64,000 nucleotides of DNA, from positions 1 through 64,000 of the forward strand of contig KZ538220.1 in assembly GCA_000934665.2 (NCBI GenBank), written 5' to 3'. Origin of the DNA: Catajapyx aquilonaris. Taxonomy: Eukaryota. Under the pieces are notes generated by a model. It searched no databases and was not told the DNA's origin. It was given only the letters and a program-made list of their open reading frames with translations. Position numbers and translations under genes: made by a program. Positions 2,818 through 54,100 of the stretch are shown here, piece after piece (the first letter of the stretch is position 1; each line of letters begins with the position of its first letter).

Positions 2818-3777
2818 AATTGTTTTAATTATGCCTAAGCCAATATATTTTGTATTACATGCGTATGAATATTTTCCCCTTCTGGAGGCCATGCCTCATT
2901 TGACCTTGTTTTGCTAGGTTAGTATTTTGCATGGCGTGAAATAATAATTTTCTACTTCCATGCTCAGGTTACCATAATCAAATTCAATTTCATGTTTATG
3001 CACACAAAATGAGTTTTTATATGGCCCATAGTCTGTACCGTCTGTGTCAAGATAATAACGCAGTCTTGCTGATGCATCATCCATTGAAATGCCTAATTAT
3101 TTAGCTAGAATGTATTTGCATCAGACTATTTTCTATAGTCAGGATTACATGTCAAATCCCGAACGAAGCTTATAAACAGTAGGCCTAACCGAATGTCTAC
3201 AAAGCGCTTTTTAATTTGGCAAATCATGGTGCTATCCAGGCAACGTGTTACAAGTCTGTTTCAGACTCGGTTTACGACTGGAGGGAAATCGTCAGCATAA
3301 CTTTGTCATCCCTGGTGTATTTATCGTTATTGTGCTGGGAGAAAGGTACGAATAGAGGCCAGTTATTGCTTTTGGGACGATGGGGATGAAGACAGGTCCG
3401 AATCTAGTCACGTCCCAGGCATCCATTCCTAGCTTCTTCCACACAACGAAGCCTCCCAGGATCTCAGGACACGCACAAGTCCAATTTCCGCACTCCCATT
3501 TTCTGCAGACATATCAAATTTAACTATTTAGGCCTACGCTCACCCTTCCAGCCATTTCCTGCACAGAATTGAGATATTTCAACATATAAGACGAACAATT
3601 CTCTCTGTGCTCTTCGTTCTCGTGTGCTATTGATAAACCGCCTGGGAATTTCATCTGGAGCTAATAAAGTCCATTTGTTACAAATTTTCAAGGTACGTGC
3701 CGCAGTTTGTTTCACTTATTGTTAGTGGAAGGGAACAAAAAAAATAGAATGTTAGCTTTGTACAAAATCAAATCATA

Positions 3778-26600: not shown

Positions 26601-27880
26601 ACCGTTATCCAGTAGCCATCTTGAATCAATTTGAAAGTCCGGCACCCACAGCAAATTGTGTGGGCGGCTATGACACTCCCAGGAACGAATTGCGGGAAAT
26701 TGCAACATTTCGCAAATAAGTGTAAAATGAGGCTTTGCTGGGACAGCAAGTTCATAGGCAGATTATATTCAACAAATATTCAACAAACAGTTTTAGAATT
26801 CTGATTCCGGGTGTCAAAATAGGTTCCACTGGCAACTTCCAGTACCGGTACTTCTGGTTTCCCGGATTCACTTTATCTGCCAAGGTCAGGTATACCGGCT
26901 GGTAACCATATGATTTAGATATTAGTTTCCTTAAATAACTACCAAAAGCCCTCAATTCTGTCAGGTACAAGCAACCACCCACACCCTGTTTCTCCCGGAA
27001 GTGTCATGGCCGGCCCGTGTGACCAAAGATTTTTCCAGCTTCAGGTTGATGGGGCTAGCGGCATTGAGTGAGGCCGTCATTTTCTCTGTCATTGCACTGG
27101 TGTCACTCCCCAGATCCTAACACAGTCAAGGAGTGTGTTTGTATACACACAGGTCTGCGACCCCCTAAACATGTTTCCATAAATGTGGGACTCCTAAGCA
27201 CAATCCAGAGCACATCTGAAAACATGCTCTGGATCATTGTGCTTAGGAACTGTAAAGCAACATTAGCAGCTAATCGGCAACTCACCACCTCCTTNNNNNN
27301 NNNNNNNNCCCTCCAGCAAAATGAAGGCCCATGCCACATACCTCGCAAGAAAGTCAAGCACTTCGTAGATTTATCATCAGCAGCAGCACCACCACCACCA
27401 CAATCCGAGATTTTCTCCCTAATTTGCATTAATACAACTGACCTGAATGAGAAACTTTTTGCAGTGATGGCCAGTGAGTTTACCAGGATTTTTTTTTCCT
27501 CTATTGTAATTGCACTAATGCAATTAAAGGCTACCATGTATCTACTTGCCGGCAATAAAGCATGATGCTTCCAGTTTGAACCCGAAATTTTTGCTAATGG
27601 ATCTCACAGCGATAGCATTTTTAGGGAACTGGACAGTCTTGTGAGACTACTCTGTGTTAAATTTATGCTGCCACCCTGCACAAGTAAGCTGCGACTGCAA
27701 TTTGCAGTATGATCAAGTTTTGTTTGTCCAGCCCACTGAGTTATTTGAACTGAACTCATAGCACTTGACCTTACTGCAAATTGAAACCACAGCTTGCTTG
27801 TGTGGGGCGGCAGAACAAGCACACTAATTTCACACACACATTTACTCTCACACTCTTACAACCACAACAAAAAGTATACA

Positions 27881-30800
27881 TTAAAATGCATATCGGGTTC
27901 GAACGTCCTCCAGCTTCTTTGAAACCTCATTTGGAGTGCGGTCAAGATCCTCCGCAATGCTCTTCTGCTTTGCAGGTTCCATCGAGTTGAACTGCTCACA
28001 TAAATCACCATCAATAACATTCTGCAAATAAGGCAAATAAGTGACATCCATTGATACAAACATGCAGCTCTACCAAAATTCCTTTAACTCACCTTGACAG
28101 GGTAATAGTAGGAGCGGAAAGAGAGATGGTCTCTCCCACAGAGTGGTGGGTTCTCCGACCTCATGTGCATCTCAAGATGCTGGAAGAAGTCATGGTCTTC
28201 ATGTGAGGTAAATGGGACCAGGATCCCAACAGTCCCTGACAGCGTGGTGTACACCAAGCTCTCATTTCCTCCTGGAATCAGGGTCACCTTCTGTAGAGTG
28301 GTTGGGGTCTCTCCACAATGGAAGTTGGACACTATGTCCACCTTCTGAGAAGCCCCATTCAGGAGGCCACGGTCCCACAGAGATTTGTTTCCAGTCGGAT
28401 CCTCATCTACCTCATCCGATATTCCTGATGGAAGCCTTAGCTGTCATGAAAAGCACAAAAAAAAACAAATTTCATAAATATTGAACATTAATGATTTCAT
28501 ATGAGTTGAATGCACGTCTCATGAATATTGCTGTAAATCTTGCATCAGATTTGAGTAAACGGGTTTAAAAAAAGTATAATCACACGGATTCATTTGAAGC
28601 GCAGGTATTGTAGTGGTCATCATTTGCAAGGACAGAAATAAAACAGCAAGAACTCCACTTGTGTTCTTCAACTCCCAACCTTATTAAAATCCATCTGCCA
28701 GTACTGAAACTCACCACAGCAATGTTGCCAAACTTGTCAGCTGCAGCAACAGTGTCGTAGTCCAGTACTGTGGAATGGGTAATCCATCTGGGATTGGTGT
28801 CATCTGCAAACACTATCAGCTGGTTCTCATGTCTCTTGTATCGAACGTAGTGCATACTCTCCTGCACGTCCGACACATAGACACGATGGCCCATGCCTTG
28901 GATGTTGACTATGGTGTTTGGGATATGCTGTGGAGAACAAACTGCATGATTATTTGTTCCCACTTCAATCATATAACATTAAAATGCATGCCAAGAGGTC
29001 AGCACTGCAGGACACATAATTTCAACAGCATAGTTCTGCCAAAGTGTTCATCACTCCTCTCGCTTTGTTATGTGATACAGCCTAATTGTCATCAGTTATC
29101 ATGCAATTTTCCAGCTCATTGCACCAACCTTATTCTCGCATTTCCTCAGCAACTTCTTCTTCCCATAGTCATACAGCCTGAGAAGCCTTCCCACCCCAAT
29201 AAGTACCCTTCCCTGGAAGGCACAAATTGCCTGTGGAACTTCATCCATGGGCGTCTTGTGAACCAGGTCCAGCTGCTGTCCCTCTGCTGCCACTCGGTAG
29301 GTGTAAACTGCTCCTCCTGCAACTATCTTTGGGTTCAACTGGTAATCCTTGGCGATCCCCACCAGAACAAACTGCTGGTCTGCTGGCTGGTTGGCAAATC
29401 TCACAAGAGCAATGCTGCCAACATAAATTGTTTCGAAATCAGTTCCAACATAACCAGACACCCCAACCTAAATTTTCCAAATAATTAGCTTGCATCAGAT
29501 TATTTTGGGTAATATAATAATCACAGGCACTCAGTGGAAGCGCGGATAAACTTTTCATCATTTGCAAGCAGTTATATTTTGGAGGTACAAATTTCCAATT
29601 AAGGAACTACACAGCAACAAAAAAATTAGTAAATACAGAGCTTCTGGCACTACATTCTAAATAATTCAAGCCCACGTATCAACAGGGGAAACTCAAGCTT
29701 ATAACATTCAATTACGGATGCATACCTGACTGCAGCCTCATTCTGTTCCAGTCGGATCTGTTGCAAAGTCTTCCCTTCTACAGGATCCATAACCTGAACA
29801 ACTGAGGCCCACATCCCAGAGCCTGCTTTGGGAGCACCAAATGTGCTCTCAGGAAGGTTTTCATTGAGAAAGGCCTCCGCCATCTCCCTAGCAAGCTCCT
29901 GCTCTTCCTCGCCAGCTGCCTCTTTCATCTCCTGCAAAATTCATTGTCTTATATTAGATTAAATCAAAATGTGTTATCAAGAACTAATATACGAGCATAA
30001 GCTGCACAGGCATCAGATATTTGGTTGTTCTAGTCACAGGCACTCATTTGAAGCGCGGTTTTGTCATCATTTGCAAGGTACAGCTATGCCTCAGCTTACA
30101 GTGTGAATGCCTATCAATATTTATTTTATAAGTAGACTGCTTACCTCAGCCATCTGCATTCTCCTACTGCGCTTAGTGTCCTCTGTGTATGCATTATGAT
30201 CAGTGAGGATGAGGTACAGGTTGGCTGACTCGGGATGCACCACAAACTTCCTCGGTGTGTACTCCAATGGAAAGCTGACTTGGTTGAACACAGCTCCTAA
30301 CTTCTCCAGAGCCAAGATTCGCAAGGTGTTAGTTGAAATGGCTACAATACCCTCTGGACACTGTTCTGATGAGAAACCAGATGCAAACTCCAAAGTCTCA
30401 TAGCTCAATGGTGTCAGGTGGAATCTGCTCTGGTAATAGTAGCTCAACCACGAACGACTTGACATGGCCAGAACGCTTTCATTCCCCTGCATCTTCACAC
30501 GAAATAGCTTCACAGGGCGTGAACCCAAGTACCTGGTGCGCGTGTCAGACAAGTCGCCTGAAACTGGATCCAAGACAGTACGTAGCAACACTCCATTTTG
30601 AAGCCCTATGTTTAAGTAGAGGGAGCCGCCACCAGTGCTTGCTTCATCTGATGACCCTTCACTGCCACCCATTTCAGCAATACATAGTGATTCAGCTGCA
30701 GCAGGCAATGCTTGCATACTGAGTGGCGTGAGGCAATCAAGCGGATCCAACGATATGATACGGACAGTATTGTCTGCAAGGCCAACAGCTAGAAATCGAG

Positions 30801-33800
30801 ACCGCTGCTCTCCCAGAGGGACATTAGCCAAAGCCATGCACACCACATCAGCAGTCATCTCTTTCCTCTCAGTATACTCATTCAGCTGGCCTGTGGGATC
30901 CATCTCGAAGTACACCAACTCCCCACCAGTCAGGGCAATCACAACCTGCCGTTGGTTGACTGCACATTTTAAAATTGTCTTCTTGCCAGGAGCCTTCCAC
31001 TCATTCACACGCTTATCAGCACGGATGTGACGAATGCCATCTGGGTAAACCTGTATTATCCCAGACAGAATTAGTGTGAGTGTCAAACAACCACCCCACA
31101 ATTTCCCTATTAATAAATTGACAGACCTGAACTAGAGCTTCTTCTCCCAGGGATGAGCATGACAATGTTGGTGTAGTGCCCAAAAATCCAGAGTCAGTCA
31201 CTTCTTCCACAGTCTCTCCAATGGACAGAACCAAGGTGGCATTGACGAAAGACACGATGATGTAAGCATCAAACTCATCTGCCAAAAGTTGGAAATTCAA
31301 AGATGATGGCATTAAACATTGCTGAAAATTCTGGGTCTTTGAAATGTGGAAAACTATTTCACTTATGAACCTTAAGGGTTACCAATTGATCAACCAGTAC
31401 ATTTCAACTTGAAATTAATCAAACTTTTACAATGTCACAAGCTCTGCTTTTAAGTTTTAAAATGCAATCAAATTTCTGGTTTTAGAGAATGCGGACAACA
31501 CTTAGCCTGAAATCAGAAATAAACGTACGGAGAATATATTTTCAAAGCATTAATCTATGACTTATACCATTTATATTACTACATTACTGACCTCATGTTA
31601 CGATCATCACACTGGACATGGCCTGGAAAGGAAATCTCTTTTGTGGTTTTACTGTAGTCATGGCCAATTTTTGCTTAAGCTTTTAAAAAATATTAGCATT
31701 CATACTCTAATAGATCAAGAATTCAGATACTATATGTATCAAGGACACCTCATGACATCTATTAATCTGCAATGCATCCCAAGCACTTTTAAGATTGTCC
31801 AGTTACTTAATTGCATTGAAATTGTTTCGGTTTTGACTCCTGTAAGTCACTCTCAGGTATTGAATTTTGAGAAATGCCACCAATTTCTTTGGGTCCAACG
31901 AAAATGAAATGTAGGACAGTAAGCCACGTACTAATAGTGAGTCACACATTCACAGCAGTTATGGCTAGATCATTTGTTTCTGGACAATCCATTTCACCTA
32001 TCAACACTACCAGGTAGCAACAGAGCTACTGTACAAATCCAACCTGTTCTCTAAAAAATACATCTGAGAAGGCCATTAAATAGGCTCTTACCATGACATG
32101 CATTCCAATAACAGTCCTGAACCTCAAAACTGACCATTCAATTATTCACCAATCTGGATTATGACTGACCTAATCTGATCAAGCTTCAATCACAGACACT
32201 AATTTTCATGTGTAAGCGAAACAATCACATACAGTGCAGATCACGAAGGTGTAACAAGGTGTCCTACACCACAACTTTAGCCTTTACTTTGATTAGTTTT
32301 CATGTAATTCAGGCCATGCACCATTATGAGCAAATAAATTGGTAGGTGGTAAGAGTGACATTCAATAAGAGAAATTCTTCTAAATTAGTTTAGCAACAAT
32401 AAATTCTAACATCTCTGGGAGGAAGAATATATATTTCCTGATTTATTTGAAAAGATGCAGCGCTCTCTAATCTCCAGTAATCAATAGTCTAATATTGAGA
32501 TGTGATCAGAGGTCATTTCAATTTCAGGGTACATCAAGAGTCTAACACGTACTATACCATCATCATTTCACAATCCAAAAATTTCAATTTACCAAATTCT
32601 CCTACTGCGTTTATCATGGTGCTCATTCAACTATACATGTGTGATGCAATTGATATTTCACAATCAATCGATCAATTTATTTAACCTCCTTGTATCAACA
32701 CAAGGAGGGACCCAACTCTTACATGATACCTCTAGCATCTTTCTAACAATTTATTTAAGGGACACTCCACTCAAAATACAAGTTGGTGTCTAAAAATCAG
32801 GCAAAAAATCCTGATTCCGAGAATGTGATCAGTTTCTCTCTGAGCCGAACGGTAGTCCGCGAAATAAATCTCAAAGTAGGCCGTCTGCAAACCCCCGGCC
32901 ACAGACCCGCTGCCCCTCCAGTCGCCCACACCTCCCCCCGGCCACCTGGCAGCTGCCTGAGGAAGTTGGATAACCGAATCTCTATCCACCACCCGTCACC
33001 ATCCGACCCCGAACTGCATTCCAAACTCGCGCTGCTGGATTCGGGTATGCAACTTCCTCAGGCAGCCGCCAGGTGGCGAGTACCCAACTTCCCCCGGTGG
33101 CCAAGGGTGAGGTGGGCGGCTCCACGCTCGATCAGAAGTCGAATTTATTCAGACTTTCGTCTCTTCCCCTGTCATTACCGTTCGCCTCAGAGATAAACGG
33201 ATCGCATTCTCGGAATCAGGATTCCTTGCCTGATTTTTAGAGGCCAACTTGTATTTTGAGTGGAGTGTCCCTTTAACAATTGCAGGTTGCAGTGGGGAGC
33301 AAGAGATAGTAAGTTAAGGTATTGTCATTACGAAATATTGTCGTGCCATTTAGCCACATGTCAAATAAAAATAAATTACATTCCATTGTTCTTCGTTCCA
33401 CATTGATATTTCACAATTCAATTGAATTGAACTTTTCACACCCTGCCTTATTTCCAATTGAGTGCCAGAAACAAGCGAAAAAGGACCTGTCAATATCGAA
33501 AATTGCAGATACACAAACAAGCTGCCATCAAAAAGCTATATTTTTAAATTGCTTTGGACAACTTTCTAGTAATAGTTGCAAACACCATCAGGTCAATCAA
33601 TATATTGGAGATGCAAGTCAACTCATTTTACCTTCCACCTTTGCCCATAACGGTTCTTAAATTCAACTGATTCAGAAATTTTCATACGTCGAAACCATCT
33701 TGTATTCCACATCTTAACCACACTAACCATAAGTGGCCATGGAACCATCCAATTTTTGAAAGCAACTACTTTCCAGCCACTTTGGTCCCCATTTAAGGGT

Positions 33801-36800
33801 AAAATCCATTCCTTAACCCCCCATGCCCCGTAAAACGGTCAGAAAATCAGTCTCATAAAGTAGAATATCTCAGTACAGGGTATGAATGGGAGCGAAATTT
33901 TACTAGGACACTCACCAAATATTCTAGAATCCTATAGATTCAACATATACCGGCAGAATCCATTTTTGCTGACTTATATGCATATAACTAACATGCTGGC
34001 ACAACAAAGGACTCCCGGACAATTTTTTAGAAATATAACGTCCCATCGGAATTTATTGCAAATTTTTTTTAAATTAATTTGGTATATTATCCCATCAATT
34101 GCATTAAAAATATTTCGTATTTACGAATAAAGTCTAATTTTAATAAATGCACAAACCATTGCTTACACTCAAGAGACGGAACTGGGACGATACTGCGCAG
34201 GCCGGGTGGATGGAGGTCAGGAGGGGGCGAAGGGTAGGGAACAGGTTTTCCTATTGAAAGGGTATGCCCTTGATGTCTGCAGGGGGTGGGGATGGACTGG
34301 TTTTGGGTTCTGGCTGCCCACGGGTAGAGAAGTGTTACAGTTCAATCTATGAACCCAGGCTGCTTCCACCTTGTTACCATCCGACTTGATGTACCGTATT
34401 ACCTCTCATAAAGCGGCATGCTGGTGTAGTTGAGGTCAACCAGTTTTTAGAAATGCATGATCTAGTGGCTATACCAGCATGGTATGCCGGTATAAAGCGA
34501 GGTTTACACATAAGTTACATTATCCTTTCCGATCTTGACATCTGCCCGAAAATTGAAAAGGCACCTTTTCCTAATAGGGTACCCGTATCATATATTGTGT
34601 TCAATTGCAGTGTCTGGCAATAATCTCCATTGAAGCAGTATGTTAGAGCAGGGGGGGCCCCTGTCAAAGCAGGCTGGTTACACACACTATATTTTTTATA
34701 TGCATTGTGCAACAGAACTTGCATATTCTCACAGCCTGTACACTCGCCCCTTTTCATGGTAACATTATTTTAGTACGGTACCAGAAGTATTCCAGAAAAT
34801 TTGGCAAGGATCAAAATTACCGAAATCTACCTTGGTTATTGCGGCATGCCAGCCACTCCAGGGTCGACCGGCATGCTGGTCGACCTCGTTTTATACCGGC
34901 ACTCTGCTTTATGAGAGATAATACTGTAATCCTTAGAACTTAGATGGTCTTGCAGCAGAAAGCAAACAGAGCTCCAATACCCAGCAAGAGACACTGGACC
35001 ATGCAACCAAATAAACTGGACTGCTAAAATTACTCACCATCGGCCCTCTTCTTCACTGTCCACACAGCATTTGGATTACCAGGAAGTTCTGAGACGGCCA
35101 TCTCAGACACTTCCAATCCATGACGCAAGACTCGGAGAGATGAACGAGGGCCCCTCCCACATAACATGTACAGCTGAGGTGTATCTTCATTTGCTAAAAA
35201 AGTACAAAATATTATAACAATGCACTAGATCATTGATAAATCCAAACTCACCCAAATCAGCAACTTGACAAGCAAGTATGGGAGAGAGTGACTCCATTTC
35301 ATCCACAAGAACAAGGTTCCTCAGAGGGCGTGGCCCGAAGAAAAAAGTGTCTCCCTCTTCCAGTGGCATGGCTGAACTAAACTCTGGTTCGTCATCGTCA
35401 TCCCCCAAATGGGCAATCTGATACAGGTAACTGCAAAAGCAAAATTGTCATGGTGTGAAGTACTTTCTGCATAGAACTGGCAGAAGTATCCTCCACTGTC
35501 AAATTAATTTAAAATTGTGGATATTTATGAGAAAGCGAGTAGACTGCAGCGAACAGAAATAATCCACACCCTAATAATCGAGAGTACAGTGTACACCATT
35601 ATCACTAATTACACCACTTGCATGGAACTGACTGCATGCCAACATTAGCAAAACGCATCCAGCACAAGTCTGTAGTTAAGTCATAAAGTCAGTCATGAAC
35701 CAACCTCAAAAAACAACGTTGATTGAGATTCATGTTGTAATAATCAACTTACTGGTTGCCGAACTCTGATGCAACAAACAGAAAGCCAGTCTTCAGGACA
35801 CACATTGAAGTTGCCACAGGTACAGTGTCGAAATACTTCAACTTGATTTCCGTGACCATGTCCTCATCAGTCTCCAATGTAATTTTAAATATGTCTCCTT
35901 GCTCAGTTTGGGTCAGGAAGAAAAACATTGATTTGGTCTTGTGTGTGGCTGAGCAAACAAATATCATGCCTCGCTCAGGATCATCCAGATCATTCTGAAA
36001 ATGATTTTCAAAAACATTAGCAGCTGCACTTCATCAAATAAGAGGTGGGGAAATGATCAAGTTTTCTAACATGTCATCACATGAGACGACTTTGGGATGT
36101 GATCAGAAGCAACATTTGATTTCAGGGTGCATCAAGAGTCTAACACGTACTATGCCATCATCACTTCACAATCCCTCATCTGTTTGCAAAAATGTTATCT
36201 CGCCTAATTAACTCACCCTTCTCCTTGGTATGGGGCACCTAATGTCATGCTGATCACCCAGGTTCTTGTATGTGATGTAGTTTTCAGAACAAATAAGGAC
36301 CCCACTAGGTCCATCATTCCCACCTGGGACAGATATCAAGAAATTGGCATGCTCATCCAATGGTTCATTGTACTTCCTCACAACATGATTCAGTCCAAGA
36401 TCCAACTCATAGAAAGTGAGGGTCTGTTGAGTCTTCTGGGCAGCTTCACCGGTGGGGTCAGTGTCAGCATCCTAGAAAAATTTCCTCATTACTTCTCTAC
36501 GCCACAAAGCAAATGATGGTTAGCAACAAAAGAAAGCGCCTTCATCAGTGAGTCGATCCGAAGTCTCATAGACATCAACGGTTCGGGTTTGGTCATCACG
36601 AAAGGATTCAAACAGTATCCAAGAGCAACTGAGAATAAATTCAACTAACCTCATAGTCAATCTCAAGGCAGGCAAACATGGGGTTTTCAAACCCAACATC
36701 TACACCGACCATGTGGTAGACCAATGTGTTGCTCTTGTGCGCTTCCAGAGGAGATGAAATGGTCAGCCTGGCCTGCGCATCTCGATTGAGGATGTACACC

Positions 36801-38135
36801 AACTTCTGCTTCTCAACTGCACCTGTAATAACAAGTCTCATTAGATACTTGTACATGTTTCAAAACCAAATGATTGCTTACCAATCATAACTGCTCTTCC
36901 CTTCGGATCAATGGCCAAATACTGCCCAGGAACAATTCTCCTGCAGCCACTCTTTCCGAACGTCTCCTGATGGACCTTCTCAAATACATTTTTGGCAGCA
37001 TTGTACTCCAGGATCACAATTCGGCCTGAGTCAGACCCAACAACAATGTAATCTGCAATCAGATTGGAAATCATCAGTGGGATTTTTAAAGTATACTGTA
37101 GTGCAGCTGTACTTCATAAATTGAACATATCATGTTATCACTTATATAGGCCTTTTAGCAAAACCAGGTCCAAAAATCACACGTGATAAGAGCAACATGA
37201 GGCACATGTTTGTAATAAAAGGACATACCAAGTGACCTTGGAGAGTGGTGATAACTACCATTGTGCTGGATTCATACTTTTTTTAGAATAATTAGCATAT
37301 CTGGTTGGGCACCTAATTCATTCATGAACATATAGAATCTTGCAGTGGCAACAGTTTTAAAGCCAGCAGACTGACGGGGAACATAGATGAATTTTTAAAC
37401 CAGCGCAAACCTGCATATTTTTGCAACAGTTCTGATCTGCCGGGAGTCTAAAATGCAACACTGGGTGTCATTTACGAAACTAGTGAAACCATTTTTTAAA
37501 AATCCCAGCAAGATCTGCCCTGGAGCCACCAGACGTGGACAGCATGAGATAATAAGAAAAGCGTGGTCACTACCACTTTTAAAAATCACTCCGGAGACAG
37601 TCCGCCATAGGGATGATTCACTTTTGGCACCTGGTGGGGAAAGGTCAGGTCCAGGTCCCTCCTCGTTCCAAAAAAATAATTTCAATGAGATCTGCCCCGG
37701 GGCCAGGCTAACAGATGTGAACAAATAGACCCCACTGACTGTGGGCAAATATAGGAGATTCCCGCGGGATGTTTGCATGACGCCATTTTCATGGCAGGCC
37801 TTGGCAGTTCGAGGCACAGAACTGGTCAATTTGCACGAACTGTGTTGCACTCATTGAAAAATTCATCTCTAGTTGACAAACCCTACCCTACAACCCGTGG
37901 GCAACACGGTGGCAGAGTGGTTAGCACCACAGCCTTCCAAGGTCCCGAGTTCGATCCCCGGGTCGCACAGAGGATACTTATGTGGAAAGCGTTTCAATGG
38001 GCTCTCTCCGTGTTCGCAGGGGTTTTCTCTGGGTTCTCCCATTTCCTCTCGCGATCAAAATCCATCACACCGCAGGCAATGATTAAAGTCGAATATTTAA
38101 AAGACGATACCCTAAGAGGCCCATCACGGGGTATC

Positions 38136-38180
<45 letters not shown>

Positions 38181-38429
38181 CCCTACACTACAACCAGACT
38201 TACCCTTGGTTCCTCCAGTGAGCCTGAATGCCATGAGCGAACGTATGATCCCGAAGACCTCAACGGTGTAGAGCACCAGCACCTTCCCAGTGTTAGGATC
38301 CGGCCTGAGCAGCTCCAGGATCTTCCCCCTGGAGACCACAACCTCCTGCAGCTTGGTCCCGGAAAAGTTCCCATGGACGGAGTGGGTGATCCCCGTCGCC
38401 CGCTGCAGGGTCAGATTGTACAGGTGCAT
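27881..38429 (-). CDS. SF3B3: Splicing factor 3B subunit 3 (SAP130), 1217 aa
   Basis: Coding exons 38429-38204, 37052-36882, 36822-36650, 36471-36217, 35994-35753, 35430-35252, 35193-35038, 31278-31127, 31050-30145, 29931-29726, 29414-29129, 28927-28715, 28440-28093, 28021-27881. All introns are GT-AG and the total is 3654 nt. Starts [13 protein letters not shown] and ends [12 protein letters not shown]. Confidence 0.98.
28539..28630 (-). ncRNA. Box C/D snoRNA, paralog a of a triplicated family (SF3B3 coding intron 12)
   Basis: CTTGCA stem, C box ATGATGA, guide TACCTGCGCTTCA, D' ATGA, C' GTGATT, D CTGA, closing TGCAAG. About 98 nt from the 3' splice site. Confidence 0.8.
28994..29060 (-). 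ncRNA. SNORD96: Box C/D snoRNA guiding 5.8S rRNA Gm75 (SNORD96 family), intron 11
   Basis: AGAGG stem, C box GTGATGA, guide ATGTGTCCTGCAGT complementary to 5.8S ACUGCAGGACACAU, D box CTGA, CCTCT. The D+5 rule lands on the G of UGCAGG. 66 nt from the 3' splice site. Confidence 0.88.
29488..29569 (-). ncRNA. Box C/D snoRNA, paralog b of the triplicated family (intron 10)
   Basis: GCTTGCA/TGCAAGC stem, C box ATGATGA, guide GTTTATCCGCGCTTC, D' CTGA, C' GTGATT, D CTGA. 73 nt from the 3' splice site. Confidence 0.85.
30010..30075 (-). ncRNA. Box C/D snoRNA, paralog c of the triplicated family (intron 9)
   Basis: C box ATGATGA, guide CCGCGCTTCA, D' ATGA, C' GTGACT, D CTGA, short GCA/TGC stem. 78 nt from the 3' splice site. 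Confidence 0.75.
32501..32572 (-). ncRNA. SNORD104: Box C/D snoRNA of the SNORD104/snR58 family, copy in intron 7
   Basis: TGTGA/TCACA stem, C box ATGATGA, guide GTACGTGTTAGACTC, D' TTGA, D CTGA. The guide pairs with LSU GAGUCUAACA and D'+5 is the C equivalent to yeast Cm663. Confidence 0.8.
32759..33272. mobile_element. Palindromic (foldback) MITE with TTAA target, Kolobok-like
   Basis: TTAA|GGGACACTCCACTCAAAATACAAGTTGG ... CCAACTTGTATTTTGAGTGGAGTGTCCCT|TTAA. About 95 bp outer inverted arms plus an inner inverted pair GCCACCTGGCAGCTGCCTGAGGAAGTTG / CAACTTCCTCAGGCAGCCGCCAGGTGGC. Confidence 0.85.
34394..34926. mobile_element. pogo/Tigger-type MITE with TA target in SF3B3 intron 7
   Basis: TA|CCGTATTACCTCTCATAAAGC ... 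GCTTTATGAGAGATAATACTG|TA, with internal inverted TGCCGGTATAAA(G)CGAGGT motifs. Confidence 0.7.
36098..36170 (-). ncRNA. SNORD104: Box C/D snoRNA of the SNORD104/snR58 family, copy in intron 4
   Basis: C box GTGATGA, identical guide GTACGTGTTAGACTC, D' TTGA, D CTGA, extended GGGATTGTGA/TCACATCCC stem. About 103 nt from the 3' splice site. Confidence 0.85.
36539..36605 (-). ncRNA. Box C/D snoRNA, unassigned family (intron 3)
   Basis: CCTT stem, C box GTGATGA, CCAAACCCGAACCG, D' TTGA, C' ATGAGA, CTTCGGATCGACTCA, D CTGA, AAGG. 67 nt from the 3' splice site. Confidence 0.8.
37896..38180 (+). mobile_element. Full-length tRNA-derived SINE (V-SINE-like core) with (ATT)n tail and 15-bp TSD
   Basis: A box TGGCAGAGTGG, B box AGTTCGATCC, core CTCTCCGTGTTCGCAGGGGTTTTCTCTGGGTTCTCCCATTTCCTC and (ATT)14 tail. 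TSD CCCTAC(C/A)CTACAACC at 37881-37895 and 38181-38195. Confidence 0.9.
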
Positions 38430-38837
38430 CTCCGCTACGTCTCACCACACTGAGAAAAGCAAGATGACTGGGGATTAGGCTAAGTAAGTCTCTCATACGC
38501 ACCACCACGTCTCGAGGCGTCTGCCCTTGAGGTGGGGCATGGTCGAGACGCGCTCACTTCCTAATGGCGAGTGCAGTTGGAACGCCCTGGCTTCCCCGAG
38601 AAGGGGGAACCAAGCCACACCGGCCGGCAAAGCGCAGCAACAAAGAACACTCACCGCTCAGGGTCTGCTTGAGGCACGGAGACGAGCCCCTCGCTTCCCG
38701 GCCGTCGGACGGGAGGGGAGAAGCGCCGATCAGCGTCCGGATGGCGGGTGATCAGGCTCGATTCGCATCACCGGGAGGCCGGAGCAAGAAGGGAGGAGAA
38801 GGAGCGACGACCCACCAACACTACTGCCATGATGCTG

Positions 38838-45160: not shown

Positions 45161-48100
45161 TCATAGAGACCCAAGGGCAGACACCAGGGCAGCCCCTAGT
45201 AAGCAGAGCAGAGCTGGGAGGATTGGCTGAAGAGTGGAGCTTCCTCCTCCACCTCCATCTGTGATTGGCCCACCGTCCGTCCTGCTGCCACCCTCACCTT
45301 CCCCTTCACCCCCAGTCTGGCCCCTAGGCCGAGTCCTGCACTCTTCGCTGCACTCGCTACCCTCACAAATGTCGCAGAGGGTTGCCTTCACTGGCTCATA
45401 GAAAGCCCGCGCTCTTCTCGCTGCAAAGAGAACATCATGTTTGCACCATCACTAGTGATCTGGATGCCAATAATACCCTACCCCAAAATTGCCATTACAA
45501 TTATTCTAACTTAATGAGCTTATAAAAATACCAGCATTACAAAAAAAGTGAATTCAGACTACTTACAGTTGTCGTAATAGTCGTACACCACGACTGGAAC
45601 TGGTTTTTGCTTTGCCACTTGGAATGTCCTGTATGCAGACACTGTCGGGCATATCTCACGACGTGTCAGCTGCAATGCCAGAGAAACTCAGTAGTCAAGT
45701 ACACCATTCCAACAAACAGCAGTGGCTAATCAACACCTACCTGGTCAAAGTAGAGCACAACCTGGGTGTCTCCTTCCTGTGTGTCTACTCTCTTTATGTC
45801 TGGATGACTGTTTCTAAGAGATGGCAGTGAGTCTTGGTCCACTGTGTATCCAGAGGGTAAATCAACCTCCATAACCGCCATGTTGCTCTGGTTCCCTCCG
45901 TCTCCTCCGATAAAGTGGGTACAAACTGTGACCTTCATCTGGTTCTGATCAGCGCTTTTGTCCAGTTGCGGGTCAAGTGAAAAGAGTGGCCAAGCACCTA
46001 CCACTGCAAGATTATAGATTGATTCAACCTGCACCACTGCAAATCCACTCCCTTGTGCCTCAACCTCAACTGTTTTGGTGTCTGCTGGCAGCTCAAACTT
46101 CTGCAACACCATTGCATTGTCACGAGTCACTTCAACCTCCCGAGATGATCCGCCATATCCAAGCCTGACTTTCATTGAGCTGGTCCCAGATCCCATTCGT
46201 TCTGCCAGTTTTGCCAAAGCATATATACCAACTACAGTGTCCTGTGTTGAAGAAAATCCACCTTGTGCATTGCGTTGAGCCACAAGCCAGCGCATTATGG
46301 GGAGGGCGTCAGATATGAGGTCACGCTCCACGTAGGTGAGAAGGGCATAACTAGTCATCTCAACATCAACTGACTTGGTAAGTGAATGCCATGGGTTGCT
46401 CTCTTTTTCCTCTGCTGATATACGCTTGGACCACCATTTCATCTCCCCATCAGCTGTCACATTTGCCTTATCTTCCAACAAGTTGAAGGCACCTAAGCTT
46501 GCTGGATGCTGTGCCAACTGAAGTGCGTATGCCACTAGAGCGATTGCATATGGATCCTCAAGGCCATCCAGCTGGCGTACCAAATAGTCAGTTGCCCTGT
46601 TACGCGCCGCAGTAAGTGCAGGTGTGGCTATTTCACGTGATTGCAGGAATGCAATTAAGGTGTAGGCTGTGAGTGCCAGGCCCTTAGCAGCTCCACCTTG
46701 CATGTCAGTGTGTGAAACCTTCCCAACCTCTGGGAATGACCCATTGGCAGCTTGTTGTCGTGATAGCCACTCAAGTGCTCCTTCAAGGACTGCAGGATCA
46801 ATTGACAAGTGTGGACGAGCCTGGTAAAAGCTGCGAGCAACAAATGCAGTGAGCCAGGTTGAGCCATTGGGATCACTCTGTCCAAATGCACTGAATGATC
46901 CATCATTCCTTCGGTAGGTGAGCTCACGTTGATATCCAGTCTCCATGAAGCGGAGAGACTTTGCTCTGATAGCAGGAGTCAACTGACGTGTCTTCTGGAG
47001 GTACTCTGTCACCACAATGTTGGGGACAAAATTGAGCATGTTCTGTTCTCCACACCCAAATGGCATGCGAAGAAGAGAATCCAGGTTGTTCACTGCTGGT
47101 CCTAAAAGATCTCCTGCCACGGCCACTTCAACTCGGGATGAGCCTGGGACAGCATTTGGAGGTATCTCTACTGGTACAGAGCTTGAGAATGATCTTGAGT
47201 TGCGGAGATCAACCAATACAGCCTTGTTGACATGCTGGGGCTGGCCTTCAGACTGCAAGAGAGTCACAAACATGTTAAAATCAGGTTGCTAATCATACCG
47301 CATTTGTTTCTCCATCAAGAATGACATCAAGTTGGCTTTCATGTTAAAATTTATGCAAAGATCTACAAGTTAACATCAGCCAATAACATGCCACATGGTT
47401 AATGTAAAGGCAATAAATTTCTACATATTAGTGATCATGACTTTACCTTGACACGAAGCTGCCTGAGAACGGCGTCACCAGCCAGTGAGCTAGTGGCTGT
47501 CACTTTGATATCAATGTGCCCAATAACCTTGGGAGTGATCATGAATGAAACAGATGCTCCATCACCTGCCTTAACCAGGACTGACTTCATGCTAGACTCA
47601 CTCCTCCCTGCAAAAATTTCATACAGACATTACTGGTACATTCAAATCAGACAGGCCTAATAGAAAAGCAGGACATACTGGACTGCCTGTCCACCTCGTT
47701 GCTCATCTCTGTGAACTCAAATTCTTCATTTGCATTCTCCAATGTCACCTGAGCTGTCACATCCTTCTTCATGTAGTTGAACACTACAGCCTGAATAGCA
47801 ACTACCTCTCCCCGGATCACTGAGTATGGCAAGTTCAGTGAGACAAAGAAGGGTCGGAAAACTTGCATCTGTTGGTTCAAAGCAGTGTAAGTACACGAGG
47901 AACGATTAAAACAGTGTCTTTAAAATTATGCAAAAGGACAAACCTTCGTCGGGCTCTCCATGACTCCAAGTCCATGTTGGTTATCAAGTGCAAAAGCAGA
48001 AATGACCCAAGAAGTGATGGTATCTGGAGCCTTCTTTGTGATAGTAGCATGTCCATCATAACTGGATATATTTTAATGGTGTTTATGGGAGGGCAGGAAG

Positions 48101-51100
48101 GAAAAGAATTACCATTAGTTTCAAATTCATTCATGAGGTAAAAGTAACAACATAAATATGTTAGGAGAGGAATGAAAGGTCACAAAAGTCCCCAGCTAAC
48201 AATTTGTGGCAGAATTAGCTGGTAAATATTAAAACGTTAAAATCCCATCAGTCACAGCCTGGGAGTTAGGATGATAATAGGTGAGCAGCTGAAAATAATG
48301 TGAGTGGCAATGAGTTAGTTTAGCACTTTTTAATGTTGCTGTAAAAAAAAAATCCGCGTGATATTATATGTAGATTATTGCAGTCCTGGAATCCAACCCA
48401 CAAGATTATTGCATATAAAAAAATAATGTGTTAAAAATGTGGCAAAATGTGGGAAATTTTGGGGCATGATTCCCCAGGGCCTCATTTATTTGACTGCAAG
48501 TGAAAGTCTTGTTTGACAGCCAAATCCACCACCAAAAGCATATTTCATAGCTAAATTATGCCATTCCAGACTTGGTGAATAAAAAAGTACAGGCCTCATC
48601 AAGACCCAAAAATTCACTGAGATATATCAATTTTAAAAATTTAACAATCAAACTTTTGTACCATAGTCTGGAATGTCCAGAAGCAGTAGTGTGTTATGGT
48701 CTACCCTACCCCACATCAATGTCTTCAAAGATCCAAGTTTCAGGAAAGTGTGTCCGCACTTCAATGTCAGTAGACAAATCGGGTATGCCGCCTGCATTTG
48801 GCGGTATTGGCACTCCTTCTGCTTCTGGCATTGGTGCATTCATAAATACTCTATCTTCTAGAGCGCCATCATATTCATATGCTGCAAACAAAATGGCAAC
48901 CATTCTAGTTCTGTGAGCAAGCCGTAATCTCTCTGCCTAATTGAGGACACCCTTTCATTTAGGGAATGACATACCAGTCCAACCCACACCAGAGAACCCA
49001 ACACCCAAGCAAGCAGCAGTGCAAAGGGACAGGGTCATGGGATGGTCTTCTTGGTAGGAAATAGTATGTAACTACCGAATGGTGACATTTTCAAAGAGCC
49101 AGGTGGGGGGCAGGTCTCTCAGTAGAAACACTCTGCGATTGTTGTATGTTGGAACAGGTAGTCGTGAAAATGCATATGGCCCTGCTAGTGGTGGCCTAGT
49201 CGATGGTCTAGGCCCTGGCCGAGGGGTCAGATCTGGCCTTATAAGTGGAACTACGGGCGCTGGAATTGGAGCTTCGCCTGGCTTCTTCTGCCTCAATGGG
49301 TTGTCCTCCCAAGGGTTCCTCTTCAGTGGGGGGAACACGCCTGCACACACACACATACATGTGGAGGAAAAGGAGGGGATGGAAGAGAGTGGGAATTAGT
49401 GGTGAGTGACCAAAGAAAGAAATCACATGCTATATACATGCCTCAAGCCTGCACATTCACATAGTCATTGTCGCACCCTCAATCACTCGTATGTACAGAC
49501 CGGTACAGATCACCTAAAAATATTGACCATACGTGTGCAACAATGCTAAGTTTCAAATGTGTAAGCCAATCCATTATATTACTGTACATTCAATATTCAC
49601 AAACTTCTGGAAATCAAACAGAAAAAGCCTGAAAGAGAACTTGTTCATTAGGCTATGATTTTGAGGCCCTGAGGAGTAAGGAAAATTCCTATGGATATTA
49701 TTCGGTGCACCTAATGTGGTTTGGGATGGGATGGCAACAGTCATATTCACACTCATCTACTCTACCCTATTTCATCCACCATCTCCCAGATCCAGGTTTC
49801 AGGAAAATCTTTGCGAACGCCTCCTCCTTGCAGATGCCTCGACACCTCACGCTGCTCCGAGGCTTCTTCCACAGCATCAGCAAAATCATTCAGACGTGCT
49901 CTCAAGCCCACTGGTTTGGAAGGGATGGAGGTATATGGCACAACACAAGAGGGACATTACTACCATTCTAATCGTACAATTGCAGCTTTTCGTCAATATT
50001 CCTATTCTTCAAATTTTGTCAGGCGTATCGTTTACATACTAAAGCAAATAATTGGCAGTGTGATGATTAAATATGCGAGTAAACACATTTTAATACAGGT
50101 GAAACTAAATTAGTTTCATGCTTATCTGGCTCAAACCCCATTACTAAGATAATTTTAGCAACTAATCCACAATCTACGCAATTCATAGGTGTATGTAAGG
50201 AGAAAAATCCGTCAAATTGCTCACCATAAATTAATAAATCTTATGCCTACTTGAAATTGTGACTCGTTTGTGTAAGTGACACTAGTGTTAATGGCAATTT
50301 CAATGAAATTTTCATAGTTGAATATTCCCAATTTGGATGCTCAAGACAGTCTCTACTACATACATAACATTTACACAAAACTGGCCCACACCAAACAATC
50401 ACACATAACCCTCATTCATAACGAACATTCTCACAGCACCAAACCCATTAAACCAGCAACTGTTAAGAAAGTCATTAGTGACATTCAGAAGATGAGTGCA
50501 TCACCTAAGAGAAAGAGCATTCTTATACAAAATATTAAATATGAAAGTTCAACGATCAAGGCATAAGCTGTATTCAATCTGCAGAACTCTTTGAAAACAA
50601 TGAAATTTCATTTCTGCAATTGGAAATTGTTTCTGACATACACACTCATCAGACTATCAAGTGTGGTAATTTTATATTATGGTTTCATCCTAATCATACT
50701 TGTGAAGGAGTAGATCCACAACATATTGTGCATGCTATAAAATCAAAATTCTGTGAACATAATTTTGCATTAAGTATTACACACATGAAGATACTTATTG
50801 TGAACCACCAAGTATTTCCAGATTGAATACAACTGACATTAATGGTACTTCACCATTTTCTCCCAATAAAAGTAACTTGCAGAAAACTGGATCCCCTTTA
50901 CACAGTATGACTGCAAGTGCAAGAATTATTTTACAATCATATGCTTATAACCAACTCACTGCCACAAAATTGAAACATCTTGTTGTCTGGGGGAAGTCAA
51001 GATCAGTCTCAAGAGAGAAGGAGAAACGGAAGATGAAATGGAAATCAACAGTTGTATGATAAGAGTGTTGCTCATGTTTTGTTCGCGAGGGAGAAGAGTC

Positions 51101-54100
51101 GTACCCAACATCAACCGTGTCCCAGAGCCAGGTCTCAGGAAAGTGCAGACGGAGTTTGGGAGAAGCGAAGGGAGAATCGACCTGATCTCCTTGCATCCCT
51201 CCAAAAGCACTGGCACCGGCACCTCCAGCAAAGGCAACAGCCTCCATCGGAGAGTTGGACCGGTAGTACACTTTAAAATATTTAGGGCACTCCTTTCACT
51301 AAAATGCTCTTCTTTAACTTCATCATGCTTGTAAAAACCTTCTGACCTCAAGAGTCATTTTCATATTCCAATCTCTCCTAAATTTATTCTCAGGTCCAAC
51401 CGAAGATATATCCTATTTAACTTCATCATCATTAAACATGCTGTTGTGCTATTACCAAGATGAGGCGAGGTCAACCTTTGGCTCACACCAGAAACTGCTC
51501 AACACTTGAGCGGAGGCAAGGGGGTTGGGAATCAGGATTCTATTTGTCACCAGGGATGTTAAGAGCTAACAAAAATTTTTTTTAAATGCACACAATCTAT
51601 GTACAGTGTACACCACTAGGATGCAGTGACCTGGAGGGACAAAACTACTCAAACAACTGGAGCTCAATCAAAATTACATGTGACACTTCCACACTGTGAC
51701 AGCTGAGGCTACAGAGCTGGAGAAATTGCATTAAGAGAGTGATAAAAAAAACAAAGCTCACAAAAAATGACAACCATCAAAATGAAGGCAGTTGCCTTTC
51801 CCCTTCACCACAACTGACATGAGAAGGAAACCCAAGTTAGTGCGATAATTCTGCCACAAACTATGAATATCACATGAATACAGGATGTCTAGGATATGTG
51901 GGGTACAAATTATAGGACGTTTCTTTCATTAACCTCTAAGTATCAACCACATTTATACTTTCAGTGACACAAGAACGGCTAATAATTCAACATGCATAAG
52001 CGATATCCTACAAACCATGCCAGAAGAATTAATTATCCCTTCTACTATGCAGAGAAACATTCAACTTTAGTCACGACATACAGAAACATTGCACAGAAAA
52101 TATGATGAACAGCCAAAACTTCAAGAGAGAGTACCAGCAATGAATCATGAAAGCAATTGCCAAAACTGGCTAGAGATGTAAATGTATGTGATGTAAGCTT
52201 ATCAATGTGCAGCAATTGATAACATAAATGTAGGCTCAAAAGGAGCAGCTTCAAAGGTCAAAATGAGAAGCAAGCTGAATGATGAGCAGGTATCACATGC
52301 ACTCCACATGATTGTACAGAGTTCTGCTGCATAAATAAGTTCTTGCAGATGCATATTACATCCAATCAAATCTATTTCCCACTGTAAATGTATCATGCTT
52401 GTCATGCAGAAGTGAATACAAGGTGTCCATAATTCGCATGTCACATCCACACAAGGTTTGTCACTGCAGTGCACAGAGTAAATGGGTCCCCCTGTCCACA
52501 CCCAGTGATGTGCGACCTACCCCGCAGTCAACCCAGTCCACAGCCAAGTCTCTGGGAAAAGCCTCCTGAGATGCACGGGGTTTTCTTCCCCTTGCATTCC
52601 CCCTGACTGTGATGTGGCCCTCTCCTCCAGGGGGTCCCTTTCCTTCCCGCCTCTTAAGGCCGTCTTCATCCTGGCCCCCTCTGGCGACTTCGGCCAGAAC
52701 ACCCTCCGAGGCATGGGGGCGTCCAACACACGACCATGACGCAAGTAAACTGTGGTGCACACCCCCCAAAAAAATGCCACGGAAGAATCCCAACAACCCC
52801 CAACAATCGATCAGAGTGGTTCGGTAGTACACATGAATACACTGGTGACATAAAACAAGTACAGGACAGGGGAAAGACCAAGGAGCAGAATGAACACAAG
52901 ACTCCTGCCTCCAGTCAATAGCCCAAAAAACATGTCATTTCACAGAATGTTCAAGATTTGTTTGCTTAAAGTAACCTATGTGCTCAATCCAATCGTAAGC
53001 TTATGATAGTTCTCCTGCCTTACTTCTGAGTAACACATAATTAGTTGTGACAAAAAAAGGTTTGTACTCACCAAATGGGTAATGCTCATAAACAAAGGCA
53101 TTGGTGAGGACTACTACTCCAGCATTCTGAAAATAAAAAGTAAATATGTGAGCTTATGCAGTCTGTTTAAAATGCTTTGCTCCTAAAAGCACTGCTCATC
53201 TTAAGCTGTACATCTCAATTCAATGAGATGGGTTCCAATTAGTTCTGATTGCCAGGTACCTGAAATACTTCTCCGGCAGTGGAAGACCCTGACCAATACA
53301 CAAGGGAGCGCCTCTTCCTCTTCTCGATTCCTCTCATCCAGGGCAGATAGTCTGGTCTTCGGCCCCCATCGTAAGATTCCAATTCTTCCAACACATCGGC
53401 CTGGGTGATGTCATTCCCACTCTTCAGGAGCAGGACACTCTGGTCTATTCCAAGAACCCCAACGTAAGAGCCTGGCTTGGAACTTATATCCACCTGCACC
53501 TCCTGGCCTGGCTCTGCTTGTCCTGGCTTCACATTTACATCCACCTAACAATTAAGATCAGTATTAGCTACGTCAGCCTATTCATTGAAAATTGGTGGCT
53601 ATTCCGCAAATTTGCAGTGAAACTCACGAAATTCTGGAATGCTCCCTGGACATCAAAATCAAGTGCATCTGCTACAACCTCTCCATCTTTGCGGACATGG
53701 AAAACAACCACTCGAGCCCTAGGGGCCATTGAACCAAGTGCCAGGAAGGAAAAGGAGCTCGTCATTCTCCCTCCAACATCAACAGTCCTTGCAAGTTGGA
53801 CATCTCCTCGCCCAACCACATGGAATGTGTATTTGTTCAGGGGAACAGTTGAGTTAACTTGTATTTCCACCTCTCGGTTCACCTGCATTGACACATGGCA
53901 TGATCAACAGGTCCTAGTGTACCCATGCATAAAGCTTAGGCTATGTTGCACCAGCCCAAGAATCAGGTACAAGTCATCCAGGTTTGCCTTTTGTCACTAA
54001 TTGTTAGGTTCATTAATAACAAGGGCAAATCCATATCTGAACTTGAATCTTGGACTAGTACAACAGGCTCTTAGTGAGAAAGATACTTACAGTTGGAACA

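Follow-up and report, generated by a model that had tools for sequence, protein, structure and literature searches.

What might be specified on the ribosome by three short, related elements lying in neighbouring introns of a single splicing-factor gene? This question is raised by a 64,000-nt window (the whole stretch of Catajapyx aquilonaris DNA analysed), for which a first-pass annotation had proposed a triplicated box C/D snoRNA family guiding 2'-O-methylation (Nm) of large-subunit (LSU) rRNA. Judged from the DNA sequence, through which they are known here, the three elements (c1, c2, and c3) are paralogous box C/D snoRNA genes on the minus strand. We put at roughly 60% the probability that these paralogues, encoded in introns of Sf3b3 (splicing factor 3B subunit 3), direct 2'-O-methylation of 28S A3716. 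What is new is the target A, for which methylation is predicted; the kind of gene is a familiar one.

Each of the three copies carries a C box AUGAUGA, of the class form RUGAUGA, near its 5' end and a D box CUGA near its 3' end, at the positions and on the minus strand originally reported, with c3 now widened slightly to 30008-30078. Based on sequence, boxes, and MFE fold, c1 (28539..28630, minus strand, 92 nt) is composed of a 5' stem (28624-28630), the C box (28617-28623), a D' guide (28594-28616), a D' box AUGA (28590-28593), a C' box GUGAUUA (28577-28583), a D-associated region (28549-28576), the D box (28545-28548), and a 3' stem (28539-28544), with a terminal stem of 6 bp in the MFE fold. 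On the same grounds, c2 (29488..29569, minus strand, 82 nt) comprises a 5' stem (29562-29569), the C box (29555-29561), a D' guide (29535-29554), a canonical D' box CUGA (29531-29534), a C' box GUGAUUA (29518-29524), a D-associated region (29499-29517), the D box (29495-29498), and a 3' stem (29488-29494), folding with a 7-bp terminal stem. The shortest copy, c3 (30008..30078, minus strand, about 69-71 nt, from boxes and fold), has its C box at 30064-30070, D' guide at 30048-30063, D' box AUGA at 30044-30047, C' box GUGACUA at 30031-30037, and D box at 30013-30016. Its inner terminal stem is just 3 bp, with an outer stem made with the intron flanks; i.e., c3 plus 25-nt flanks folds at -28.3 kcal/mol, with the external stem GCAUAGCUG paired with CAGCUUAUGC. 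The D'-C' spacer is 6 nt in c1, c2, and c3 alike. The D' box is non-consensus (AUGA) in two of the three copies (c1 and c3); an assigned zebrafish guide has the same AUGA variant as its box D.

Paralogy of the copies is apparent in what they retain. The C-box motif TGCAAATGATGA has three exact occurrences in the 64-kb window, every one inside c1-c3, and at ≤1 mismatch there are 4 matches in the window vs 0.98 expected from shuffles. The guide core GCGCTTC, set 2 nt before NTGA, holds an identical register in all three copies, and the contrast drawn initially between kept and diverging parts also stands: the invariant parts are the boxes, stem, and guide core, whereas the flanks and the D-associated region cannot be aligned. 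The latter region measures 28 nt in c1, 19 nt in c2, and 14 nt in c3, with no conserved guide in this half of the three copies.

Because a MAFFT alignment of the full-length copies misplaces the 3' end of c3, only the 5' halves were modelled in searching for further copies. This sequence-only model returned just c1-c3 in the window at E≤10 (matches that arise by construction) and no fourth copy. Two candidates for a fourth copy were rejected: position 47723, with 1 mismatch to TGCAAATGATGA, falls within the coding sequence of another gene, while position 57128, where CCGCGCTTCAATGA is flanked by an A run and a T run, lacks a C box and goes unmatched by the 5'-half model at E≤10. Three metagenome loci with TGCAAATGATGA, a 2-16 nt gap, and CCGCGCTTC were judged to be chance matches, each being without an NTGA D' after the core and without a matching D box and stem. 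By eye, one of these pattern matches looks coding and the other two are the same GC-rich stretch.

The host gene lies on the minus strand at 27881..38441 (approximate extent, from C-terminal to N-terminal exon). The product of its exon ORFs has a match to human SF3B3 (5o9z_w) with E 1.3e-173, contains the Pfam domains Beta-prop_RSE1_2nd and CPSF_A, and is 84-86% identical to its SF3B3 counterparts in many animals. Together with a further box C/D element (element X, below), c1, c2, and c3 are distributed one per intron over four consecutive Sf3b3 introns, on the sense strand. Contigs from a second sequencing run of the same organism (X5), which cover exons only, have all four introns spliced out exactly at GT..AG ends. 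The c1 intron (28441..28714, minus strand, 274 nt, GT..AG) is bridged by an X5 contig joining 28440 to 28715, and that of c2 (29415..29725, minus strand, 311 nt) by one joining 29414 to 29726. For c3 (intron 29932..30144, minus strand, 213 nt), the X5 contig joins 29930 to 30144, and a cut 1 place rightward gives GT..AG. From the 3' end of the element to the following exon there are 98 nt for c1, 73 nt for c2, and about 78 nt for c3, and a spacing of 73-98 nt is close to the one reported to favour the processing of intronic C/D snoRNAs in mammals.

Between the c1 and c2 introns, an intron at 28928-29128 (splicing again confirmed by an X5 contig) contains element X (28992..29062, minus strand), which has a C box, a D box, and a 7-bp stem but is not one of the c1-c3 trio; 64 nt separate its 3' end from the downstream exon. 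The D guide of this element, UGUGUCCUGCA, would place 5.8S G75 at D+5 and so predicts Gm75 (fly Gm74). Zebrafish SNORD96, paired to 5.8S AAUUGCAGGACAC, has G75 as its target, and fly CD34 shares with element X both this predicted 5.8S site (fly Gm74) and Sf3b3 as a host. No Rfam match was obtained for element X. As a 5.8S G75 guide by prediction can go unmatched in this manner, absence from Rfam says little in this lineage.

The window contains no rDNA. With the zebrafish LSU alignment and the human sequence standing in for C. aquilonaris 28S, the D' guides of c1, c2, and c3 were found complementary to UGAAGCGCGGGUAAAC, a conserved 28S motif shared by the two LSU types of zebrafish, as had been proposed, through 13, 15, and 10 contiguous pairs, respectively, where guides of this class have an antisense of at least about 10 nt. 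The c1 duplex spans positions 2-14 from D' with one G-U pair (-24.9 kcal/mol), and the c2 duplex spans positions 3-17 with one G-U pair (-26.6 kcal/mol); neither energy was reached by any of 2000 shuffled guides. That of c3, the shortest of the three, spans positions 2-11 at -20.2 kcal/mol, an energy reached by 1 of 2000 shuffled guides. In every copy, guide U5 is opposite the same nucleotide, so that D'+5 falls on the second A of GAAG as first predicted. This A lies within 28S GAAGCGCGG and corresponds to A3716 in human numbering (position 3716 of human 28S being an A), yeast A2233, and fly about A2611. The distances given for it at the outset were likewise right, with the target 7 nt 5' of G3723 (SNORD87) and 23 nt 5' of A3739 (SNORD46/snR63); the site is presumably near an intersubunit bridge. 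Both C-to-U differences between copies retain G-U pairs, as had been pointed out, whereas the selection read into them is only weakly suggested, there being just two such events. In c1, the D-associated region also pairs with the adjacent GUAAACGG (-15.3 kcal/mol).

By analogy with their class, c1-c3 would each be expressed and trimmed from the intron lariat after splicing, as a C/D snoRNP with bound fibrillarin, Nop56, Nop58, and Snu13. The antisense upstream of D' would then pair with pre-28S (U)GAAGCGCGGGUAAAC on the 5' side of helix 69 (H69), whereupon fibrillarin would methylate the 2'-OH opposite the fifth guide position from D', i.e., the second A of GAAG. The D-associated half of c1 may lend "extra" pairing to the adjacent GUAAACGG. 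Counted against this proposal are the AUGA D' boxes of c1 and c3, along with the 10-bp duplex and 3-bp inner stem of c3.

The same proposal must also be set against existing methylation maps. As the first-pass annotation had suggested for human, methylation at the predicted A is absent from the human site table; it is also absent at the equivalent A from zebrafish, Drosophila, and Arabidopsis RiboMeth-seq tables and from the predicted chicken list. As the animal appears to be an arthropod, the relevant comparison is that with Drosophila and not with vertebrates; the fly map, the only arthropod map compared, displays no Nm between Am2598 and Am2634 and thus none at the equivalent site, which counts against methylation. 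No SNORD with the c1-c3 antisense was present in Supplemental Data 4 of PMC7668251 (zebrafish) or in a zebrafish snoRNAome supplement, and a fly supplement, in a file that may not include snoRNA sequences, contained neither the antisense nor the target motif. Literature searches found no mention of Am3716, 28S-A3716, LSU-A3716, Am3737, 28S-Am3737, or 25S-Am2233, and none of A3716, A3717, A3737, and A2233 is named in a review.

The absence of a Drosophila Nm at this position would also fit c1-c3 being genuine, expressed C/D snoRNAs that leave the predicted A unmethylated, acting instead as orphans, pre-rRNA folding chaperones, or guides for some other RNA. We regard this as unlikely. Precedents exist: many predicted guide-target pairs in Arabidopsis are without experimental confirmation (145/244), and the zebrafish "SNORDX", although highly expressed and equipped with plausible rRNA targets, yielded no methylation. 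The unconfirmed Arabidopsis predictions, however, mostly concern weak interactions, unexpressed snoRNAs, or guides without a D/D' box, whereas the duplexes here are long (13 and 15 bp in c1 and c2), adjoin D' (canonical in c2), and maintain the same register in three copies.

Quite improbable, in our estimation, is that at least one copy, above all c3, is a decaying duplicate without processing to a stable snoRNA, in a family perhaps on its way out. Such decay would be compatible with the short inner stem and duplex of c3, its GUGACUA C' box, and its AUGA D' box, and the lack of the site in Drosophila might suggest loss of the family. However, the guide core and perfect C and D boxes persist in all three copies while the surrounding intron has diverged beyond alignment, and c3 retains both a strong external stem and an intron spacing like that of c1 and c2.

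The initial failure to place c1-c3 in a known family was borne out, with 0 gathering-level Rfam matches across the whole window. The best sub-threshold score was that of c2 to snoZ196 (32.5 bits vs a cut-off of 55), and permissive scans gave only sub-threshold, box-driven matches. Very unlikely is that the family is not new and belongs in the U36/snR47 clan as an animal homologue of its plant U36a type: c2 does match snoU36a (RF01302) and the model consensus UUUAUCCGCGCUUC is identical to the c2 antisense, with Arabidopsis U36a variants being assigned to 25S Gm2237, but this match is below threshold (26.5 bits vs a gathering cut-off of 45), c1 and c3 have none at E≤10, the 3' guide for Am2221/Am2220/Am3703 is missing from c1-c3, and their D' is 3 nt further away, selecting another nucleotide. 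Moreover, since the conserved target forces it, the antisense identity between c2 and U36a is no evidence of common descent.

Returning to c1-c3 as Sf3b3-encoded guides for A3716, we give even odds to the broader proposal of an arthropod lineage with 2'-O-methyl-A at A3716, in the 3' strand of the helix preceding H69, laid down by a three-copy family that arose in Sf3b3 and independently reached the plant U36a antisense with D' shifted by 3 nt. If real, the methylation would add a lineage-specific Nm to a functionally dense part of the LSU, between Am3703 and Gm3723/Am3739 and next to H69. It would also illustrate a route to new sites, namely duplication within an old host gene combined with the gain of an antisense against an rRNA stretch that is accessible and universally conserved. 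Plants (Gm2237) and this animal would then carry methylation on different nucleotides of one exposed pre-rRNA segment, a natural "register shift" in guide evolution. Such knowledge is incremental, as RiboMeth-seq of new species routinely finds such sites; in zebrafish, for example, it yielded 10 sites and 5 new SNORDs.

Among known systems, the closest by antisense is plant U36a (Rfam RF01302; Arabidopsis U36a-1/-2/-3). Its 5' (D') guide shares the 14-nt antisense UUUAUCCGCGCUU(C) with c2, the rRNA stretch that it pairs with being likewise identical (AAGCGCGGGUAAA); the c1-c3 antisense is thus not unprecedented. In Arabidopsis, 25S Gm2237 (MethScore about 0.99) and Am2221 are assigned to U36a variants. 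In the U36a model consensus, D' is 3 nt closer to the antisense than in c1-c3, so that D'+5 falls on At G2237 (human G3719), 3 nt downstream of the A selected by c1-c3. The plant family also possesses a second (3') guide, for Am2221 (= Am2220, Am3703), which the animal c1-c3 do not; this 3' antisense of the snoU36a model is deleted in the alignment to c2 and absent from the D-associated regions of c1-c3.

Two further families guide methylation on either side of the c1-c3 target. Upstream by 13 nt, on the same strand, is the conserved Am3703 (yeast Am2220, fly Am2598), guided by SNORD36/snR47/fly CD18, which belong to the same Rfam clan as snoU36a (CL00051) but have an antisense and a target unlike those of c1-c3; the SNORD36 host in zebrafish and chicken is rpl7a. 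Downstream by 7 nt is the target of SNORD87/HBII-276 (28S Gm3723), whose D' guide pairs with an overlapping part of the rRNA, GCGGGUAAACGGCGGGAGU. The Gm3723 site is found in human, in zebrafish, and in the chicken prediction, with none listed for Drosophila. SNORD87 has no Rfam match in the window, and its listed zebrafish and chicken hosts are genes other than Sf3b3.

With respect to the host, Sf3b3 is known to carry snoRNAs in human, chicken, and zebrafish (SNORD111) as well as in Drosophila (six C/D snoRNAs). SNORD111/111B (28S Gm3923) is SF3B3-hosted in vertebrates and, like c1-c3, present as several copies in different introns; however, its target differs, and the chicken copies occupy introns 3 and 6, as opposed to the introns of c1-c3 towards the gene's 3' end. 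Three Ensembl snoRNAs lie in zebrafish sf3b3, one overlapping the SNORD111 homologue. SNORD111 has no Rfam match in the window, nor does a SNORD111-type guide UCAUGUCUCUUC (antisense to 28S GAAGAGACAUGAGG, Gm3923) occur there in a snoRNA context: this guide has 3 matches at ≤2 mismatches vs 6.4 expected, none exact, the closest (28827-28838, + strand, 1 mismatch) falling within an Sf3b3 exon and those at 23857 and 63574 outside Sf3b3. The Drosophila cargo consists of CD26a/b (28S-Cm813), CD32a/b (28S-Gm3184), CD34 (5.8S-Gm74), and CD43 (28S-Am796/799); unlike c1-c3, none of these six is assigned to the A3716 equivalent, though in both flies and C. aquilonaris the introns concerned contain one snoRNA each and copies are duplicated. 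Sf3b3 would accordingly stand as a snoRNA host across animals with turnover of its cargo, which is SNORD111 in vertebrates, a different six in flies, and yet another set in C. aquilonaris.

Three paralogous box C/D snoRNA elements lie on the minus strand at 28539-28630 (c1), 29488-29569 (c2) and about 30008-30078 (c3), where the first-pass annotation had placed them, with sequence, boxes and folds in agreement. Each copy consists of a 5' stem and AUGAUGA, then an antisense of 16-23 nt, D', a 6-nt spacer and C', and lastly a variable region, CUGA and a 3' stem; c1 and c3 have AUGA as their D', c2 has CUGA. Across the alignment, the 5' stem and C box are unchanging, as is a GCGCUUC core with NUGA 2 nt after it; also kept are the D box with its 3' stem and C' (GUGAUUA; GUGACUA in c3). 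Neither the flanking intron sequence nor the D-associated region (28 nt in c1, 19 nt in c2, 14 nt in c3) can be aligned. MFE folds give terminal stems of 6 bp in c1 and 7 bp in c2; the inner stem of c3 has 3 pairs only, and c3, when folded together with 25-nt flanks, gains an external stem (-28.3 kcal/mol). Exact copies of the 12-mer TGCAAATGATGA number three across the window, one per element; with ≤1 mismatch there are 4 matches (vs 0.98 expected), the fourth being rejected as an extra copy since it is coding sequence of another gene. R1, a sequence-only model of the three 5' halves, recovered c1, c2 and c3 (by construction) and no fourth copy in the window at E≤10. At 57090-57170 (minus strand), upstream of a TEP-like gene and flanked by an A run on one side and a long T run on the other, CCGCGCTTCAATGA resembles the guide and D' of c3; this stretch is without a C box, was not picked up by R1, and may be either a chance resemblance or a decayed copy.

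The host gene is Sf3b3, on the same strand as the trio: one of its exons encodes a product that matches the PDB sequence of human SF3B3 (E 1.3e-173), and Pfam recognizes the RSE1/DDB1/CPSF1 propeller and CPSF_A. Because contigs from a second sequencing run of this organism (X5, from a study other than that of X1) splice out four successive introns, all with GT..AG ends, Sf3b3 is transcribed and spliced as annotated here. These minus-strand introns, at 28441-28714, 28928-29128, 29415-29725 and 29932-30144, hold c1, a neighbouring box C/D element outside the trio (X), c2 and c3, respectively. Each trio member sits in its intron with no companion, its 3' end 98 (c1), 73 (c2) or about 78 nt (c3) from the next exon, a layout also seen in X, for which an established site is the predicted target.

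Element X (28992-29062, minus strand; C box GUGAUGA, D box CUGA, 7-bp stem) ends 64 nt before the exon, its intron lying between the c1 and c2 introns. Its D guide UGUGUCCUGCA is complementary to 5.8S AAUUGCAGGACAC, with D+5 (the position opposite the fifth guide nucleotide from D) being G75 (fly G74), the same G as for zebrafish SNORD96; the Drosophila guide for 5.8S-Gm74, CD34, is Sf3b3-hosted too. Element X has no match in Rfam, and since this holds even with a known predicted target, the lack of an Rfam match weighs little in this lineage. Two more 5' Sf3b3 introns carry a near-identical paralogous C/D pair (32501-32572 and 36098-36170, minus strand) with the antisense ACGUGUUAGACUC followed by UUGA, which we take to pair with 28S GAGUCUAACACGU, +5 being the C of human Cm1327/fly Cm813; the fly Cm813 guides CD26a/b likewise reside in Sf3b3. 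A further C/D-like element (36539-36604, minus strand; GUGAUGA ... CUGA, 5-bp stem) lies in an intron of Sf3b3, by our reading of the sequence about 65 nt ahead of the following exon. With X and further C/D-like elements in its introns, Sf3b3 thus hosts multiple snoRNAs, much as its fly counterpart does, which further carries CD26a/b, CD32a/b and CD43. Inside an Sf3b3 intron there is a local repeat (32759-33196) with similar ORF fragments on both strands and a sub-threshold mir-550 match (32941-33078), which looks like a repeat or transposon remnant. About 80-200 nt past the Sf3b3 stop codon, a long, nearly perfect hairpin (27680-27801, plus strand) gives sub-threshold microRNA-model matches (MIR7125, 28.7 bits vs 100) and is probably an inverted repeat, not a known miRNA.

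For guide-target pairing, duplexes were computed against zebrafish early and late LSU rRNA (...AAUUCAA(C/U)GAAGCGCGGGUAAACGGCGGGAG...), with position counted from the zebrafish SNORD36 (A3703) and SNORD87 (G3723) rows. The second A of GAAG is thereby A3716 in human numbering, which the human numbering table confirms (3716 is A, 3719 is G). Contiguous pairs number 13 in c1 (positions 2-14 from D', 1 G-U, -24.9 kcal/mol), 15 in c2 (positions 3-17, 1 G-U, -26.6 kcal/mol) and 10 in c3 (positions 2-11, no G-U, -20.2 kcal/mol); shuffled guides did as well in 0/2000, 0/2000 and 1/2000 trials, respectively. The D'+5 rule, as the first-pass annotation had proposed, points to the second A in all three copies, with a U there opposite A3716 of the zebrafish motif. 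Also borne out was its observation that C/U differences between copies retain G-U pairs, as both of the two lie opposite G and keep the wobble; the selection read from this is, however, only weakly hinted at, because there are two events only, both transitions. No antisense is common to the three D-associated regions. That of c1 (28549-28576) contains CCGUUUAC, complementary to 28S GUAAACGG (-15.3 kcal/mol) directly 3' of the main duplex; the same match is 6 bp only in c2 and lacking in c3. Such extra pairing was reported for nearly half of Arabidopsis Nm sites, and could possibly compensate for the shorter primary duplex of c1; with a chance of about 1% for an 8-nt match of this type (a rough estimate), we treat it as suggestive only. 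In the secondary structure, the predicted target presumably belongs to the 3' strand of the helix just before H69 (E. coli about A1890), close to an intersubunit bridge and the E-site tRNA.

Yeast is not known to carry Nm at A2233. The human RiboMeth-seq table (Krogh 2016, supplement file 2) runs through consecutive rows 3697, 3703, 3723 and 3739, with neither 3716 nor 3719 present, which agrees with the initial expectation of no human methylation at this A. Zebrafish has the same four sites (Supplemental Data 4), and the chicken list, which is predicted only, gives 3207, 3213, 3233 and 3249. The Drosophila 61-site map places Am2598 and Am2634 in the region (matched to human 3703 and 3739 through their spacing and conservation codes) and no site between them; the Arabidopsis sites listed for the region are A2215, A2221, G2237 and A2257. 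None of six names for the site occurs in any paper of the literature collection searched.

Judged by their sequence, the three elements constitute an unannotated and probably lineage-restricted family of C/D snoRNAs, for which a new Nm site is predicted; new sites and SNORDs of this kind turn up whenever new species are profiled. On the best reading, which is the standard one, the RNAs would be processed from spliced Sf3b3 introns and, as expected of their class, assemble into C/D snoRNPs, pair with pre-28S through the D' antisense, and direct fibrillarin to methylate the A3716 equivalent. That c1-c3 are genuine snoRNA genes is very probable, and for the full reading, predicted methylation included, we estimate a probability of roughly 0.6. 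This caution arises because predicted guide-target pairs often fail (145/244 in Arabidopsis, with an example in zebrafish also), because the one arthropod map, that of Drosophila, is without the site, and because D' is AUGA in two of the three copies.

Regarding the organism, the SF3B3 exon has no match closer than 86% in a collection of 5.8 billion protein sequences, with insects, vertebrates and molluscs alike at 80-86% identity. A thioester-containing protein gene (TEP/CD109/alpha-2-macroglobulin-like; about 45700-56300, minus strand) has a 520-aa exon with a GCGEQ motif; among the best 120 matches of this exon, the 91 that name an organism are all insects or Daphnia (55-60% identity). From these two match lists, rather than a tree, we infer that the animal is an arthropod and that the collection contains no close relative.

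From yeast positions and a comparison with the yeast sites in the Dictyostelium table, we take Arabidopsis numbering to be yeast+1 here, and Gm2237 would therefore lie 3 nt downstream of the predicted A. Methylation at Arabidopsis Gm2237 is complete (MethScore about 0.99), with U36a variants as the guides assigned to it. In the Rfam snoU36a consensus, UUUAUCCGCGCUUC is followed directly by UGA, such that the antisense is the same as in c2 and D' is 3 nt closer, which accounts for the G as target. Filing the trio under the U36 family was rejected, as the snoU36a match is far below threshold (26.5 vs 45 bits) and the second guide of that family is missing; moreover, convergence is expected to yield identical antisense where the target is universally conserved. 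Sequence comparison thus indicates that the closest precedent for the trio is a plant guide that pairs with this rRNA stretch in a different register. Of modest interest are this register shift versus plant U36a and the way a conserved host gene has turned over its snoRNA cargo.
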